A program made the position numbers and the translations under genes. Positions 10,640 to 53,641 of a DNA stretch of 64,000 bases are shown here, piece by piece. Every line of letters starts with the position of its first letter. Position 1 is the first letter of the stretch. The notes beneath the pieces were generated by a model that searched no databases, had not been told where the DNA came from, and was given only the letters and a program-made list of their open reading frames with translations. This stretch comes from Escherichia coli. GTDB lineage: Bacteria; Pseudomonadota; Gammaproteobacteria; Enterobacterales; Enterobacteriaceae. The stretch lies in assembly GCF_009931435.1 (NCBI RefSeq), contig NZ_CP043414.1; one strand, 5' to 3'.

Positions 10640-10988
<349 letters not shown>

Positions 10989-16676: not shown

Positions 16677-17389
16677 TCGAAATCTTACATGAATACTGGA
16701 AACCACTGCTGTGGACCGACGGTTATCGCTTTACTGGCGTGGCGATCACCCTGTGGCTGCTGATTTTGTCGGTAGTGATAGGCGGAGTCCTGGCGCTGTT
16801 TCTGGCGATTGGTCGCGTCTCCAGCAATAAATACATCCAGTTTCCAATCTGGTTATTTACTTATATTTTTCGCGGTACACCGCTGTATGTTCAATTGCTG
16901 GTGTTCTATTCCGGCATGTACACGCTGGAGATTGTTAAGGGTACCGAGTTCCTTAACGCCTTTTTCCGCAGTGGCCTGAATTGTACTGTGCTGGCGCTGA
17001 CGCTTAACACCTGTGCTTACACCACCGAGATTTTTGCCGGAGCAATCCGTTCGGTACCGCACGGAGAAATTGAAGCCGCCAGAGCCTATGGCTTTTCGAC
17101 CTTTAAAATGTATCGCTGCATTATTTTGCCTTCAGCGCTGCGTATTGCGTTACCGGCCTACAGTAATGAAGTAATCCTGATGCTGCACTCTACTGCGCTG
17201 GCGTTTACGGCCACGGTGCCGGATCTGCTGAAAATAGCTCGTGATATTAACGCCGCCACGTATCAACCTTTTACCGCCTTCGGTATCGCCGCGGTGCTCT
17301 ATTTAATCATCTCTTATGTCCTGATCAGTCTGTTCCGCAAAGCGGAAAAACGCTGGTTGCAGCATGTGAAACCTTCTTCAACGCACTGA
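16673..17389 (+). CDS. hisM: Histidine/basic amino acid ABC transporter permease
   Basis: 238-aa hydrophobic ORF, paralogous to hisQ. Confidence 0.9.
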
Positions 17390-17396
17390 GAATACG

Positions 17397-18170
17397 ATGT
17401 CCGAGAATAAATTAAACGTTATCGATTTGCACAAACGCTACGGCGAACACGAAGTGCTGAAAGGGGTCTCACTGCAAGCGAATGCCGGTGATGTCATAAG
17501 TATCATCGGATCGTCGGGATCGGGGAAAAGTACCTTTCTGCGCTGCATTAACTTCCTCGAAAAACCGAGCGAAGGATCGATCGTCGTTAACGGCCAGACG
17601 ATCAATCTGGTGCGCGATAAAGACGGTCAACTCAAAGTCGCCGATAAAAATCAGCTGCGCTTACTGCGCACACGCCTGACGATGGTATTCCAGCACTTCA
17701 ATCTCTGGAGCCATATGACGGTGCTGGAAAACGTCATGGAAGCGCCGATTCAGGTGTTAGGCCTGAGCAAGCAGGAAGCGCGCGAGCGGGCGGTGAAGTA
17801 TCTGGCGAAAGTCGGGATAGACGAACGTGCGCAGGGGAAATACCCGGTGCATCTGTCCGGTGGTCAGCAACAGCGTGTTTCCATCGCGCGGGCGCTGGCG
17901 ATGGAACCGGAAGTTTTACTGTTTGATGAACCTACCTCGGCGCTCGATCCTGAACTGGTAGGCGAAGTGCTGCGTATTATGCAGCAACTGGCAGAAGAGG
18001 GAAAAACCATGGTGGTGGTGACTCACGAAATGGGCTTTGCTCGCCATGTTTCTACTCACGTCATTTTTCTCCATCAGGGGAAAATAGAGGAAGAAGGCGC
18101 GCCGGAGCAGTTATTTGGCAACCCGAAAAGCCCTCGTCTGCAACAGTTCCTTAAGGGATCGCTGAAATAA
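17397..18170 (+). CDS. hisP: Histidine/basic amino acid ABC transporter ATPase
   Basis: 257-aa ORF; Walker [13 protein letters not shown] signature [15 protein letters not shown], Walker [12 protein letters not shown]. Confidence 0.95.
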
Positions 18171-18177
18171 CTCCCCC

Positions 18178-18207
18178 TCCGGTGGCTAACGCTGCCGGAG
18201 TATTTTC
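18178..18207 (+). terminator. Terminator-like hairpin after hisP
   Basis: ctccgg...ccggag stem followed by a T-rich tract. Confidence 0.45.
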
Positions 18208-18366
18208 AAGGGAAATTTGCGAGTCCGTTTCCGCTGAAATGTAAAAGTTGCAGTCCGCTAAAAATACTTCTGAATTCGCTGTCCAAAGATAAAAACTGCC
18301 TGCTGCATTGGGTGTAAATCGTGGTTATTGTCGCGTCATCTTAAATTTGAGGGGTGACGGAACGCC

Positions 18367-19257
18367 ATGACAATATCGACAACTTCCACGCCGCATGATG
18401 CGGTATTTAAATCTTTTTTACGCCATCCAGACACCGCGCGGGATTTTATTGATATTCATCTTCCCGCGTCGCTGCGCAAACTGTGTGATTTAACGACGCT
18501 CAAACTGGAACCAAACAGTTTTATTGATGAAGATCTGCGGCAATATTATTCCGACCTCTTGTGGTCTGTGAAAACGCAGGAGGGAGCGGGTTATATTTAT
18601 GTGGTGATAGAGCACCAAAGTAAGCCGGAGGAATTAATGGCTTTTCGCATGATGCGCTATTCCATCGCGGCGATGCAAAACCATCTGGATGCAGGCTATA
18701 AAGAGCTTCCATTGGTGATCCCAATGCTGTTTTATCATGGTTGCAGAAGTCCTTATCCTTATTCACTCTGCTGGCTTGATGAATTTGCCGAGCCTGCTAT
18801 AGCCCGCAAAATATATTCATCGGCTTTTCCGCTGGTGGATATTACCGTGGTGCCGGATGACGAGATTATGCAACATCGCAAAATGGCGCTGTTGGAGTTA
18901 ATTCAGAAACATATTCGTCAGCGCGATCTGTTGGGATTAGTCGACCAAATTGTTTCGCTGCTAGTTACAGGGAACACTAATGACAGACAGCTAAAAGCCC
19001 TGTTTAATTACGTATTACAAACGGGAGATGCCCAGCGTTTCCGTGCATTTATTGGTGAGATAGCGGAACGAGCACCACAAGAAAAGGAGAAACTGATGAC
19101 CATTGCTGACAGATTACGTGAAGAAGGCGCAATGCAGGGCAAACACGAAGAAGCTCTGCGTATTGCTCAGGAGATGCTGGAAAAAGGATTTGACCACGAA
19201 GTCATCCTGACGCTGACCCGACTTTCACCAGACGACCTAATCGCGCAAAGCCACTAA
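18367..19257 (+). CDS. rpnB: Rpn-family (YhgA-like, transposase_31 / PD-(D/E)xK) recombination-promoting nuclease
   Basis: 296-aa ORF; N-terminal nuclease-like core (D...VIEHQSK) and a charged helical C-terminal tail; position matches yfcI/rpnB. Confidence 0.8.
19096..19257 (+). CDS. Candidate nested in-frame small ORF (53 aa) within the rpnB 3' end
   Basis: Strong SD aaggag (19084-19089) spaced 6 nt from an in-frame ATG at 19096; would encode [53 protein letters not shown]. Confidence 0.35.
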
Positions 19258-19304
19258 TCCTGTAACACCGGGAATTAACTGGCGGATGTTTGCAGTACAC
19301 CACA

Positions 19305-20198
19305 TCAGTGAACAACATCCGCCAGCGCTTCTTCTAAATCGTACCAGCGAAACGCAAAACCCGCTTCTTCCAGCCGTTTAGGCAATGCTCGTTGTCCACC
19401 TAATACCAGTACTGAAGATTCGCCCATTAACAGTCGAATAGCGGTCGCGGGGACGCGCAAAATGGCCGGGCGATGCAGCGCATGACCGAGCGCATGGGCA
19501 AATTGTTCATTGCGTACCGGGTAGGGCGAAACCATATTAAACGGCCCGCGCAGCTCGTTATCCAGCAGCCAGAGAATACCGTTGACCATATCATCGATAT
19601 GAATCCAGGCCAGATACTGCCGACCGGAGCCAATCGGCCCGCCCAGGCCAAGACGAAACGGCGGCAGCATTTTACCGAGGATCCCGCCGTCCGGTGCCAG
19701 CACCACGCCGGTACGCAGCAGGCACACACGTGTTTTGTCGCTTTGCGCCCGACAGGCAATCTCTTCCCAACGAGCGCAGAGTTTGTGGGTAAATTCGTTA
19801 TGCGGCGGTTCCTCTTCGGTAACCACCACTTCACCTAAGTCGCCATAATAGCCCGTTGCCGAACCGGAAATGAGTACCGACGGCGGCGTGTCGCTGGCAT
19901 TAATTACATCGACCAGTTTTTGCGTGATATTCCAGCGGCTTTGGCAGAGACGATCTTTTTGCTCGTGAGTCCAGCGTTTATCGGCAATCGGTTCTCCAGC
20001 CAGGTTGATTACCGCATCAACGCCATTGAGGTTGCTTTGATCTGCAAGCCCTTGCCATAGTGTCACCCGGGGGCCGAGAGCGGAACTGGCTTTCTGCGGG
20101 TTACGTGTCACTACCGTGATTTGATGGCCCAGCTCCAGCAAACGTGGAATCAAATGGCGACCAATTAATCCCGTCCCTCCGGTGATCACTATGTTCAT
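19305..20198 (-). CDS. yfcH: NAD-dependent epimerase/dehydratase-family protein (TIGR01777-like)
   Basis: 297-aa ORF; Rossmann motif [12 protein letters not shown]. Confidence 0.8.
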
Positions 20199-20218
20199 GC
20201 AGCCTCCCGATATGGCGG

Positions 20219-20581
20219 TTAACGCTGCCAGCTTAAGGTCATGGATACCGAATCAGCGTAGCGCAGCGCGTGCAGTTTATCGATCTCTACTTCAGCATAC
20301 GTTACCCAGTGATGTTCACGTGCGATATCGAGCACATCCTGAGTTAATTTCTCCAGCAAAGAGAAACGGTTATTCTCTACGTGCTGAATAATGTTTTTCG
20401 TTACGGTGCGATAATTCAGCGCATCGTTGATATCTTCGCTGGTGCGCGCTTTATCGGCGGGGTAGTGGATCGTCACGTTGATAACTATATCCTGACGGTT
20501 GTTAATTTCTTCTTCCTTAATTCCGATAAACGTACGTAAACGAAGGTTCTTTATACGAATAATAGCGGCAGGTTGTGCCAT
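20219..20581 (-). CDS. folX: Dihydroneopterin triphosphate 2'-epimerase
   Basis: 120-aa ORF, FolB/FolX-size protein; gene order. Confidence 0.85.
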
Positions 20582-20637
20582 TGCAGGTTCTCCGTTGTTT
20601 TACTTAGGATTAAATAATACACGAGAACCTGTTTCTG

Positions 20638-22114
<1,477 letters not shown>

Positions 22115-48865: not shown

Positions 48866-50395
48866 ATGTTACTACCCTGGCTAATATTAATTCCCTTTAT
48901 CGGCGGCTTCCTGTGCTGGCAGACCGAACGCTTTGGCGTCAAGGTGCCGCGCTGGATCGCGCTGATCACCATGGGATTGACGCTGGCGCTGTCGCTGCAA
49001 CTGTGGTTGCAGGGCGGTTATTCACTGACGCAATCCGCCGGAATTCCGCAGTGGCAGTCTGAATTCGACATGCCGTGGATCCCGCGTTTTGGTATCTCTA
49101 TCCATCTCGCCATTGACGGGCTATCGCTGCTGATGGTCGTGCTGACCGGTCTGCTCGGTGTGCTGGCGGTACTCTGTTCGTGGAAAGAGATCGAAAAATA
49201 TCAGGGCTTCTTCCACCTCAACCTGATGTGGATCCTGGGCGGCGTTATCGGCGTGTTCCTTGCCATCGACATGTTCCTGTTCTTCTTCTTCTGGGAAATG
49301 ATGCTGGTGCCGATGTACTTCCTGATCGCACTGTGGGGGCATAAAGCCTCTGACGGTAAAACGCGTATCACGGCGGCAACCAAGTTCTTCATTTACACCC
49401 AGGCGAGTGGTCTGGTGATGCTGATCGCCATCCTGGCGCTGGTTTTTGTTCACTACAATGCGACTGGCGTCTGGACCTTCAACTATGAAGAGCTGCTGAA
49501 TACGCCAATGTCTAACGGCGTGGAATATTTGCTGATGCTGGGCTTCTTCATCGCATTTGCGGTGAAAATGCCGGTGGTTCCGCTGCATGGCTGGCTGCCG
49601 GATGCGCACTCCCAGGCTCCGACCGCCGGTTCCGTTGACCTCGCGGGGATCTTGCTGAAAACTGCCGCTTACGGTTTGCTGCGTTTCTCCCTGCCGCTGT
49701 TCCCGAACGCGTCGGCAGAGTTTGCACCAATCGCTATGTGGCTGGGTGTTATCGGCATCTTCTACGGTGCGTGGATGGCCTTCGCCCAGACCGATATCAA
49801 ACGTCTGATCGCCTACACCTCGGTTTCCCACATGGGCTTCGTGCTGATTGCTATCTACACCGGCAGCCAGTTAGCCTACCAGGGCGCGGTCATTCAGATG
49901 ATTGCTCACGGCTTGTCGGCGGCGGGTCTGTTTATTCTCTGCGGTCAGCTTTATGAGCGTATCCATACCCGCGATATGCGCATGATGGGCGGTCTGTGGA
50001 GCAAAATGAAATGGCTGCCAGCACTGTCACTGTTCTTTGCGGTGGCAACGCTTGGGATGCCGGGCACCGGTAACTTCGTCGGCGAATTTATGATTCTGTT
50101 CGGCAGCTTCCAGGTTGTCCCGGTGATTACCGTTATCTCTACCTTTGGGCTGGTCTTTGCATCTGTTTATTCGCTGGCGATGTTGCATCGCGCTTACTTC
50201 GGTAAAGCGAAAAGCCAGATTGCCAGCCAGGAACTGCCAGGGATGTCGCTGCGTGAGCTGTTTATGATCCTGTTGCTGGTGGTGCTGCTGGTACTGCTGG
50301 GCTTCTATCCGCAGCCGATTCTGGATACCTCGCACTCCGCGATTGGCAATATCCAGCAGTGGTTTGTTAATTCCGTTACTACTACAAGGCCGTAA
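48866..50395 (+). CDS. nuoM: NADH-quinone oxidoreductase subunit M
   Basis: 509-aa antiporter-like membrane ORF. Confidence 0.9.
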   Translation: MLLPWLILIPFIGGFLCWQTERFGVKVPRWIALITMGLTLALSLQLWLQGGYSLTQSAGIPQWQSEFDMPWIPRFGISIHLAIDGLSLLMVVLTGLLGVLAVLCSWKEIEKYQGFFHLNLMWILGGVIGVFLAIDMFLFFFFWEMMLVPMYFLIALWGHKASDGKTRITAATKFFIYTQASGLVMLIAILALVFVHYNATGVWTFNYEELLNTPMSNGVEYLLMLGFFIAFAVKMPVVPLHGWLPDAHSQAPTAGSVDLAGILLKTAAYGLLRFSLPLFPNASAEFAPIAMWLGVIGIFYGAWMAFAQTDIKRLIAYTSVSHMGFVLIAIYTGSQLAYQGAVIQMIAHGLSAAGLFILCGQLYERIHTRDMRMMGGLWSKMKWLPALSLFFAVATLGMPGTGNFVGEFMILFGSFQVVPVITVISTFGLVFASVYSLAMLHRAYFGKAKSQIASQELPGMSLRELFMILLLVVLLVLLGFYPQPILDTSHSAIGNIQQWFVNSVTTTRP

Positions 50396-50401
50396 ATCGC
50401 C

Positions 50402-51859
50402 ATGACAATAACTCCACAAAACCTGATCGCACTGCTACCGTTGCTGATCGTCGGCTTGACGGTGGTGGTTGTGATGCTCTCCATTGCGTGGCGACGCAAT
50501 CATTTCCTCAACGCTACGATCTCGGTTATTGGGCTTAACGCGGCGCTGGTTTCGCTCTGGTTTGTCGGCCAGGCGGGCGCTATGGACGTTACGCCGCTGA
50601 TGCGCGTTGATGGTTTCGCCATGCTTTACACCGGGCTGGTATTGTTGGCGAGCCTCGCCACCTGTACTTTCGCCTACCCGTGGCTTGAAGGCTATAACGA
50701 CAACAAGGACGAGTTCTACCTGTTGGTGTTAATTGCCGCGCTGGGCGGGATCCTGCTGGCGAATGCCAACCATCTGGCGTCTCTGTTCCTCGGTATTGAA
50801 CTGATCTCTTTGCCGCTGTTTGGCCTGGTCGGTTACGCTTTCCGCCAGAAACGTTCGCTGGAAGCCAGTATCAAATACACTATCCTTTCTGCCGCAGCGT
50901 CTTCTTTCCTGCTGTTCGGTATGGCGCTGGTGTATGCGCAGTCTGGCGACCTGTCGTTTGTCGCGCTGGGTAAAAACCTCGGCGACGGTATGCTCAACGA
51001 GCCGCTGTTGCTGGCAGGTTTCGGCCTGATGATTGTTGGCCTTGGCTTCAAACTCTCTCTGGTGCCGTTCCACCTGTGGACGCCAGACGTATACCAGGGC
51101 GCGCCTGCGCCGGTTTCCACTTTCCTGGCGACGGCGAGCAAAATCGCTATCTTCGGCGTGGTGATGCGTCTGTTCCTTTACGCACCAGTGGGCGACAGCG
51201 AAGCGATTCGCGTGGTGCTGGCGATTATCGCCTTTGCCTCTATCATCTTCGGTAACCTGATGGCGCTGAGCCAGACCAATATCAAACGTCTGCTCGGTTA
51301 CTCATCTATCTCTCACCTCGGCTATCTGCTGGTGGCGCTGATTGCGCTGCAAACTGGCGAGATGTCGATGGAAGCGGTAGGGGTTTACCTGGCCGGTTAT
51401 CTGTTCAGCAGCCTCGGCGCGTTCGGCGTGGTCAGCCTGATGTCCAGCCCGTATCGTGGCCCGGATGCTGATTCCCTGTTCTCTTACCGCGGTCTGTTCT
51501 GGCATCGTCCGATCCTCGCGGCAGTGATGACGGTGATGATGCTGTCACTGGCGGGTATCCCAATGACGCTGGGCTTTATCGGTAAGTTCTATGTGCTGGC
51601 GGTCGGTGTCCAGGCACACTTGTGGTGGCTGGTGGGTGCGGTGGTTGTCGGTTCGGCAATCGGCCTCTACTACTACCTGCGCGTAGCGGTGAGCTTATAC
51701 CTGCACGCCCCGGAGCAACCGGGTCGCGACGCACCGTCAAACTGGCAGTACAGCGCGGGTGGTATCGTGGTGCTGATCTCTGCACTGTTGGTACTGGTGC
51801 TGGGTGTATGGCCGCAACCGCTGATTAGCATTGTGCGGTTAGCAATGCCGCTGATGTAA
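50402..51859 (+). CDS. nuoN: NADH-quinone oxidoreductase subunit N
   Basis: 485-aa antiporter-like membrane ORF; last gene of the nuo operon. Confidence 0.9.
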
Positions 51860-51883
51860 GCTGTCAGTTCGTAAGTCAGAAAG

Positions 51884-51910
51884 CCGCCGACAAGTTCGGC
51901 GGTTTTTTTT
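51884..51910 (+). terminator. Rho-independent terminator of the nuo operon
   Basis: ccgccga-caagt-tcggcgg hairpin followed by 8 T. Confidence 0.8.
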
Positions 51911-51926
51911 GGTGCCCTGACCCCCA

Positions 51927-52430
51927 TCACCCAACAATAACCGTCAGCGCATGATTCCCTTGCCGCAGCATACGTCGATACGCGCTAATCAGCTTTTCCA
52001 TATCGAGCATGATCGAAGCAAAGAGTTGCCCCTCTAACTCTTCTGAAAAGGTTACTCCCGGATAAATCTCCATTTCATTGAGTCGTTTAATGGAAAACTG
52101 TTTACGCAGCACATTTCGGTCAAGAGCTTCCAGTCGGTCGATTGTCGCGGCTAACTCCTGATTCCAGGTCAATCCCAGGAATCCATCTATGCCATCTTCG
52201 AGGCTGTGTTCACCAAGCACGGCACGACTCAGCGGATCATTCTTCGCGGGATCAAAAGCAGAGGTGCCTGTCAGCCCAAAGTGTAAAAAATCCCAGCGTT
52301 TATCAATATCCAGTCGGCGTAATCCTGAAAGCGTGTCATGTATATTATCCATCAAAGGTTTTTGAGTAGACTCAAGAAGTTGGTTAATCTTTTCTGAGTC
52401 AATTTCTGCAAAATAGCCAATCATTCCCAT
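51927..52430 (-). CDS. yfbM: DUF1877-family protein
   Basis: 167-aa ORF; size and position consistent with yfbM. It lies 67 bp from the nuoN stop in this strain. Confidence 0.7.
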   Translation of the reverse strand: MGMIGYFAEIDSEKINQLLESTQKPLMDNIHDTLSGLRRLDIDKRWDFLHFGLTGTSAFDPAKNDPLSRAVLGEHSLEDGIDGFLGLTWNQELAATIDRLEALDRNVLRKQFSIKRLNEMEIYPGVTFSEELEGQLFASIMLDMEKLISAYRRMLRQGNHALTVIVG

Positions 52431-52532
52431 TTTATTTTCCTCCGTTGAATTTCATGTTTCGCATCTTAAAACAGACGAGGGAAAATAAAATGTACATGTC
52501 GCTTTTTCTGGACCCGCCTCGAGAAATTTTTA

Positions 52533-53510
52533 TTATTTACTGTTGTATAACAAAGTTATAACCCCATCCACTACCTGAGCCATTTTCTGATAATTCAATC
52601 TGTCTGCGGTATCACCGGGCAAGTGGTATTGTTTATTACGATAAAAAGCGGTGTCGGTAATCATTACGGCGGGAATATCGTGTTGCCAATAATTAAGGTG
52701 ATCAGAGAAATCAATACCGGGAATAAACCCTGGGGCATTCATAGAATAAACAGATAAATCCTGAGATGACAACAATGCCGCTTTTAGCTGACGAACGGCG
52801 TTGATATCCTGCATTCTGCCGACCACGGCAATAAAGTCTCCCCGATCGGGATAAAGCCAGGACATTGCCGGGTAAGGGTAATCCTGACTACCAGGCGCAG
52901 AGTCGTAATAGCCAATCATCTCCAGCGCTATCATTAATCTAACTGGACGCTCAAGCGAAGCTGCATGTACCGCGCTCCCCATTTCATCGCTACGAAAGAA
53001 GGGCGGTTCTTCCGACGCATAGGCGACCAGCTGCACGCCAGTTTTCGGTGCTTGCTGCTGTAACAAACGTGCCAGTTCGAGTAATCCTGCCACGCCGCTG
53101 GCGTTATCATCCGCGCCCGGCGTATAGGTCAATTGATCGTTTTCATAACTGCTGACAGAATCATAGTGCGCACCAATAATAATCAGCGGTCCATCGGCAG
53201 GACCATAATCAGCAACAATGTTTTTGTAGGGACCTCCCGTAATGGGGACGTCCTGCGCGGTAACGCTGGCACCGCTACTGATAAAGACCTCTTTTATATA
53301 TTCTGCGGACCTTTTCAGATTATCAATATTGTCGGCACTACGGGGATGCACAGTTTGTGTAAGATAACGAACTGTTTTTTCTAATTGCTCAGGACTTGTG
53401 TGTCGGGGCGTTGGCGGTAATGCATTGACCCAGGGTTGGTAAAAAATAATCAGAGGGAGTGAAAACAGAATTAATATAATAAAAGCAAAGTTTATTTTTT
53501 TCATATGCAA
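52533..53510 (-). CDS. yfbL: Secreted M28-family (aminopeptidase-like) zinc peptidase
   Basis: 325-aa ORF with N-terminal signal/anchor (MHMKKINFAFIILILFSLPLIIF); M28 motifs IIGAHYDS and ASEEPPFF. Confidence 0.8.
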   Translation of the reverse strand: MHMKKINFAFIILILFSLPLIIFYQPWVNALPPTPRHTSPEQLEKTVRYLTQTVHPRSADNIDNLKRSAEYIKEVFISSGASVTAQDVPITGGPYKNIVADYGPADGPLIIIGAHYDSVSSYENDQLTYTPGADDNASGVAGLLELARLLQQQAPKTGVQLVAYASEEPPFFRSDEMGSAVHAASLERPVRLMIALEMIGYYDSAPGSQDYPYPAMSWLYPDRGDFIAVVGRMQDINAVRQLKAALLSSQDLSVYSMNAPGFIPGIDFSDHLNYWQHDIPAVMITDTAFYRNKQYHLPGDTADRLNYQKMAQVVDGVITLLYNSK

Positions 53511-53641
53511 ATTATTAATGGGTTGCGTTATTGAATCATTATTTGTTATAGGTTTCGATATTGTATTTTATTAAGATTAGCAGGATTATACAAAGAGTAT
53601 ATTTTATGTCTGGTGCCTGAGTTTATTTAAAAGGATTTTAT

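Follow-up and report, generated by a model that had tools for sequence, protein, structure and literature searches.

The AAGGAG hexamer and the ATG following it near the 3' end of rpnB, in the stretch of Escherichia coli DNA analysed here (64,000 nucleotides, hereafter the window), form with a probability of roughly 0.9 in our estimate the internal translation initiation site (iTIS) of rpnB from which the antitoxin RpnB-S is made. The feature is already known, and our finding is a re-identification of the published RpnB-S internal start (2019-2023). According to the mechanism that we favour, ribosomes would bind AAGGAG at 19084 and initiate at the ATG at 19096 and, judging from K-12 data, they would do so largely on a shorter and more abundant transcript that begins inside rpnB. 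The product would be RpnB-S, a helical protein of 53 residues corresponding to the C-terminal tail of the full-length RpnB-L. It would bind RpnB-L via the oligomerisation domain common to both proteins and hold this DNA-damaging nuclease inactive; one gene would thereby encode a toxin together with its cognate antitoxin. Hypervariable stretches in the tail would decide which RpnS pairs with which RpnL, and RpnB-L and RpnB-S would co-evolve because their codons are shared.

The anatomy of the site can be read directly from the window, where the sequence around the Shine-Dalgarno (SD) hexamer and the ATG is caagaaAAGGAGaaactgATGaccatt. The features concerned are the following.

19084-19089, + strand: Shine-Dalgarno AAGGAG belonging to the internal start (codons K240-E241)
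19096-19098, + strand: ATG of the iTIS, in frame, Met244 of RpnB-L and Met1 of RpnB-S
19096-19257, + strand: nested ORF rpnB-S as translated, 53 aa plus stop, putative intragenic antitoxin (function taken from the K-12 orthologue; PMC10400941)

AAGGAG and ATG are separated by a spacer of 6 nt (aaactg, 19090-19095). The ATG lies 729 nt (19096-18367, i.e. 243x3) behind the first letter of the ORF at 18367..19257, which makes it codon 244 and places it in frame. The stop codon of the 53-aa frame occupies 19255-19257, and RpnB-S has exactly the sequence with which full-length RpnB ends, its C-terminal tail. The original prediction, made from the letters alone, had named the AAGGAG, the 6-nt gap, the in-frame ATG at 19096 and the 53-aa product, and on re-reading every coordinate and number in it proved correct. 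In the RefSeq records inspected RpnB-S is unannotated and a single rpnB CDS is listed, which is a point for annotation.

The gene that harbours this start and its main domain are situated as follows.

18367-19257, + strand: rpnB (yfcI), full-length ORF of 296 aa, RpnB-L, toxic recombination-promoting nuclease (after the rpnB annotation in matching E. coli genomes)
18388-18993, + strand: YhgA-like N-terminal domain, residues 8-209 (Pfam PF04754 Transposase_31, E=2e-91, profile positions 1-202 of 203)

The rpnB product also matches the NCBIfam model of the Rpn family (TIGR01784) with 191 bits, the cut-off being 52. The YhgA-like domain of Rpn proteins is a PD-(D/E)XK nuclease (PMC10400941), and the long product, as judged from these profile matches, is predicted to carry the nuclease domain in a full-length family match. 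The gene lies between hisP and the convergent yfcH, as it does in annotated E. coli genomes, and its neighbours (hisJQMP, yfcH, folX and yfcG) are housekeeping genes. The window as a whole is a segment of an Escherichia chromosome that runs from fabB through hisJQMP, pta and nuo to menF/elaD.

Two further regions of the window deserve mention in their own right. Positions 10675-10981, in the dedD-cvpA intergenic region, contain four identical REP-like elements (GTCGGATGCGGCGTGAACGCCTTATCCGACCTAC, - strand) with an exact period of 91 nt, which are probably the reason why the first 25 kb of the window match at many additional places in each genome. At the other end, positions 50001-64000 reach a best identity of only 97.4% among 5426 complete E. 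coli genomes, whereas elsewhere the window reaches about 99%. For this region the top matches fall into two to three pieces that span 2.5-4.7 kb more than the query, and therefore point to an indel or a divergent segment around yfbK/elaD/menF.

The gene rpnB is present in 4755 of the 5426 complete E. coli genomes and its flanks in 5425 of them; the approximately 670 genomes without rpnB represent a clean presence/absence polymorphism. Two features are to be listed here.

18277-19278, + strand: presence/absence segment of 1002 bp, comprising the region upstream of rpnB, the gene and 21 nt past its stop codon (comparison with strain R14)
19279-19325, no strand assigned: perfect 12-bp inverted repeat CTGGCGGATGTT / AACATCCGCCAG with a loop of 23 nt, between rpnB and the convergent yfcH (repeat search)

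In strain R14, which is without rpnB, 27 nt replace the 1002-bp segment between the hisP terminator and the hairpin on the yfcH side; at these junctions no flanking repeats caught the eye. The inverted repeat begins at the right edge of the segment, is kept in the empty site of R14, and overlaps the 3' end of yfcH. It is possibly a terminator shared by rpnB and yfcH; a terminator scan made no call at 19279-19325. Damaged copies of the gene exist as well. The rpnB gene most similar to that of the window (NZ_AP027764.1, L002 301-1191, 99.8%) contains a premature stop at W136, with the SD, the ATG and the 53-aa ORF intact, and in NZ_CP103623.1 (L006 1-2006) an ISVsa5 insertion splits rpnB while the 3' part remains. 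Both alleles may represent a decay of the toxin that leaves an "orphan" RpnB-S behind.

The function of the internal start has been worked out in K-12. All five rpn genes show Ribo-RET peaks at internal starts that are in frame (Meydan et al. 2019, 10.1101/520783), and Zhong et al. (2023, PNAS 120:e2307382120; PMC10400941) found an Onc112/retapamulin signal at the internal start of K-12 rpnB (their Fig. 2C), so that the initiation-site mapping suggested with the original prediction already has a positive answer in that strain. Chromosomal SPA tags combined with immunoblots detected small RpnS proteins from all five rpn genes, RpnB-S included, and dRNA-seq located transcription starts inside all rpn genes, from which short and more abundant transcripts arise (PMC10400941). 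When both iTIS and RBS of K-12 rpnB are mutated, the gene inhibits growth to a greater extent than its wild-type form does (PMC10400941). The experimental checks named with the original prediction were published in 2019 and 2023. When provided in trans, RpnB-S lowers the RpnB-dependent induction of dinD-lacZ (SOS), but not the RpnA-dependent one, and a stop codon at D29 of RpnB-S abolishes this suppression (PMC10400941). Likewise, RpnA-S does not neutralise RpnB, nor RpnB-S RpnA (PMC10400941). Translation from the iTIS, antitoxin activity and specificity are in this way established for K-12 RpnB-S by the work of others, whereas a physical complex and the inhibition of cleavage in a test with isolated components (in vitro) were demonstrated for RpnA only: RpnA-S associates with RpnA-L and prevents it from cutting DNA in vitro, the crystal structure of RpnA-S shows a dimeric three-helix bundle, and alkaline pH dissociates the RpnA complex (PMC10400941). 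A commentary by Koonin (PMC10400984) describes the Rpn system as an antitoxin within a toxin. The nested small protein countering a toxic Rpn nuclease, as originally predicted for the window, agrees with these rpnB experiments (PMC10400941), and the identical SD-ATG context suggests by analogy that they would hold for the window too.

This analogy depends on the published start being the same ATG as that at 19096, and the sequence comparison indicates that it is. In K-12 rpnB the SD, the spacer and the ATG are letter for letter those of the window. We pinned the published iTIS by means of the residue label "D29" and of alignments with RpnA. Counting from M244 (MTIADRL...), residue 29 of the K-12 protein is Asp, and since the label "D29" fits K-12 only when counted from M244, the published start is taken to be M244. 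The other candidate would be the next in-frame ATG within the tail, at 19132 (Met256), which would yield a small protein of 41 aa. A start at this codon is next to impossible in our view and was rejected: its predicted anti-SD pairing is weak (-4.8 vs -8.7 kcal/mol at M244), with M256 taken as the first residue, position 29 would be Thr, residue 1 of RpnA-S aligns with M244, and in the long alleles of the gene the Met itself is replaced (GRNDGLIL), so that it is not conserved.

The comparison with RpnA leads to the start at M244 as well. In the alignment with the NCBIfam RpnA profile, residue 1 of the 53-aa product falls on position 244, the Met that was exchanged in RpnA by M244L, and AAG-GAG of the window encodes K240-E241, the same residue numbers as in the mutated RBS of RpnA-S; on the chromosome, RpnA-S is lost when RBS and iTIS are mutated by K240R+E241D+M244L (PMC10400941). 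A phmmer search aligned residues 1-52 of RpnB-S with residues 1-48 of RpnA-S (7TH0_A) from end to end (E=9.1e-5). An AF2 single-sequence model of the RpnB-S monomer is all-helical (pLDDT 82), and the top PDB match of this model in Foldseek is again 7TH0 (probability 0.94, TM 0.62/0.70, 43% identity), a match that falls short of statistical significance (E=0.33, rmsd 8.4 A). As support by itself the structural match is weak, and it should be regarded as consistent with homology rather than probative. Taken with the sequence alignments and the model, RpnB-S appears to be a small helical protein homologous to RpnA-S.

How much does the motif say by itself? The window contains five instances of AAGGAG followed by ATG at a distance of 4-9 nt (AAGGAG-N4-9-ATG), whereas dinucleotide-preserving shuffles contain 2.08 +/- 1.34, and 3 of 100 shuffles reach five, which is only weakly in excess of chance. 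It could be argued on this basis that AAGGAG is an incidental SD-like hexamer made up by the Lys-Glu codons of a conserved peptide (QEKEKLM), which would at most cause ribosomes to pause and would yield no separate protein in this strain; after all, chance would produce some two such motifs in 64 kb, and a second SD with ATG in the same gene, discussed below, scores higher and yet is a lineage-specific synonymous variant, showing that such signals can arise incidentally. However, K-12, with identical context, does make RpnB-S, as evidenced by profiling peaks, tagged protein and loss upon mutation of RBS and iTIS. Moreover, the SD is invariant in the aligned alleles, though the synonymous codons AAA and GAA would remove it, and the other four matches in the window all head long ORFs. 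The K-12 experiments on the identical context exclude this reading in practice, and we regard it as extremely improbable.

The four remaining matches stand at the heads of ORFs of 153-403 aa, each with an in-frame stop located upstream by 4-22 codons, and look like ordinary gene starts because of this position at the head of a long ORF shortly behind a stop. The rpnB site is the only match in the window that is buried inside a reading frame. Its SD is predicted to pair with the anti-SD at -8.7 kcal/mol, compared with -8.5 kcal/mol at the annotated start of rpnB, and ranks second in this respect among all in-frame ATG, GTG and TTG codons of the gene. RNA folding of the 120 nt around the iTIS revealed a region no more structured than its shuffles (z=+1.03), in the centroid structure of which SD and AUG are mostly unpaired. 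An Rfam search of window positions 17000-21000 gave no match. A scan for the sigma-70 consensus near the iTIS found no convincing promoter; the sole candidate on the + strand, at 18568-18597 with 9/12 matches, lies about 500 nt upstream of the iTIS. The case for the internal start rests on conservation and on published experiments, not on the motif count.

The best-ranked anti-SD pairing in rpnB belongs to another in-frame signal, GGAGG separated by 5 nt from an ATG at 18637 (18627-18639), which is Met91 (-9.5 kcal/mol). This SD needs a synonymous GAG, which of the six sequences compared only the window and its nearest relative possess; the codon reads GAA in the remaining four of the five other alleles, namely K-12, O157:H7 and the two long ones. 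An internal start at M91 was rejected as probably incidental, given that its SD depends on this lineage-specific synonymous codon.

The SD at 19084 is, in contrast to that of M91, invariant in all six aligned sequences. Of the 4755 genomes with rpnB, 3926 agree with the window in all 35 nt across the SD and the start (19074-19108), and the other 829 have one mismatch there; in one long allele that was inspected, the mismatch is a synonymous ACC/ACT difference in codon 2. The small ORF behind this start is much more variable. Compared with the window, its 162 nt have an identity of at least 95% in 890 genomes, of 80-90% in 3293 and of 60-80% in 572, and most rpnB-positive genomes have a tail identity of 79-89%. 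The variability of the tail includes two blocks.

19126-19137, + strand: variable block 1, RpnB-S residues 11-14 (GAMQ), with a length polymorphism of four residues (allele alignment)
19180-19215, + strand: variable block 2, RpnB-S residues 29-40, a diverged allelic segment (comparison with K-12)

In block 1, alleles of 903 bp have GRNDGLIL (RpnB-S residues 11-18) in place of the GAMQ of the 891-bp alleles, a difference of 12 nt. According to Zhong et al., the pairing specificity of RpnL and RpnS is set by how many four-residue repeats the first helix contains, and they placed these repeats 8-20 residues after the initiating Met (PMC10400941). The indel of block 1 is inside the published range, and it is a single four-residue step in which no obvious tandem repeat is seen.

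Block 2 accounts for all of the amino-acid difference between the window and K-12 RpnB-S, with nine of 53 residues exchanged (in K-12 this block reads DRGLDRELVMMV). Relative to K-12, codons 1-243 have a dN of 0.005 and a dS of 0.105, i.e. the N-terminal part is strongly conserved; the small ORF has a dN of 0.094 and a dS of 0.233, and codons 272-284, which cover block 2, reach 0.49 and 0.74, respectively. That both values are very high in block 2 suggests old alleles that were imported or recombine. The tail protein of the window is identical to that of the O157:H7 allele, and this type is carried by roughly a fifth of the rpnB-positive genomes. At least three combinations of the two blocks exist in E. 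coli: short with EKGF (window and O157:H7), short with DRGL (K-12) and long with DRGL. One may speculate that the two blocks assort independently and that block 2 also sets pairing, in which case recombination would keep specificity types that do not neutralise each other. We put this forward as a tentative idea that is somewhat unlikely at present; if true, specificity classes in block 2 would extend the published repeat-number rule.

Despite the nine substitutions, we infer, by analogy with K-12 RpnB-S, that the window allele behaves in the same way. A relationship of the tail to pentatricopeptide-type (PPR) proteins was likewise considered: window positions 19132-19218 (RpnB-S residues 13-41) resemble the designer PPR consensus GKLDEALKLFEEMVEKGIKPDVVTY with about 44% identity, and designer PPR proteins in the PDB give E-values down to 6e-33. 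These E-values are sums over about ten identical repeats, each of which contributes 4-7 bits with the full-length query, and all repeats match a single helix-turn-helix in the RpnB-S query. PPR kinship was rejected, as the Pfam PPR score is 14.3 bits against a cut-off of 25 and the E-values are inflated by the repeats; what is left is the resemblance of a helix hairpin.

Another possibility is that RpnB-S is indeed made but does not chiefly act as an antitoxin in phage defence: it might be a regulatory or structural subunit of an RpnB hetero-oligomer whose housekeeping role concerns recombination or the metabolism of DNA, or else be left over from a toxin in decay. Zhong et al. themselves left housekeeping roles for Rpn open, and protection from (T-even) phage was demonstrated for the plasmid-encoded RpnP2 only, not for RpnB (PMC10400941). 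The housekeeping genes on either side of rpnB would fit such a role, as would the allele of the closest genome, in which a stop at W136 precedes an intact SD and small ORF, and that of another strain, in which an IS insertion has left the 3' part. On the other hand, removal of RpnB-S in K-12 raises the toxicity of RpnB, and RpnB-S in trans suppresses specifically the SOS response induced by RpnB, which is antitoxin behaviour by definition. As the main function of RpnB-S a role of this kind is very unlikely; it is possible as an addition to the demonstrated neutralisation, not as its replacement.

The original prediction had called Rpn nucleases "toxic or defence-related". Toxicity is borne out for RpnB in K-12, while for defence the protection from phage demonstrated so far concerns the plasmid system RpnP2; by analogy, the RpnB system may defend against phage, too. 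The locus itself was not assigned to a defence system: rpnB has housekeeping neighbours, and in a PADLOC scan (2023 library, which may lack Rpn) no model matches the gene. The principle of a gene-within-gene antitoxin is important, and its occurrence in the chromosome of another E. coli adds no new biology. Our comparison touches on a small question, namely whether the block of residues 29-40 forms specificity classes among natural rpnB alleles.

Among the known systems, RpnB-L/RpnB-S of K-12 is the closest. It is the orthologue at the same position (hisP-rpnB-yfcH), with 96.1% nucleotide identity and 296 codons, and shares the SD, spacer and ATG, the start at Met244 and residues 1-28 and 41-53 of RpnB-S. 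The proteins differ by the nine substitutions of the window in residues 29-40 of RpnB-S and by three in the N-terminal 243 residues. RpnA-S (PDB 7TH0) is a homologue from a paralogous gene, with about 43% identity and with RBS and start at K240, E241 and M244; being a paralogue and not an orthologue, it shows no cross-neutralisation with RpnB. In the RpnA-S crystal one long helix mediates dimerisation, whereas our monomer model of RpnB-S breaks the first helix at residues 13-16, a break that may be an artefact of modelling a monomer from a single sequence. The plasmid system RpnP2-LS of ECOR13 has the same gene-within-gene architecture of toxin and antitoxin. In contrast to the chromosomal rpnB with its housekeeping neighbours, it is plasmid-borne, and it is the only member of the family with demonstrated protection from T-even phages. 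Outside the Rpn family, ArcB-C (Meydan et al. 2019) likewise arises from an in-frame iTIS near the 3' end of its host gene, which releases the host protein's C-terminal domain as a free product. However, ArcB-C is a phosphotransfer domain that complements the function of its parent, whereas RpnS proteins antagonise theirs.
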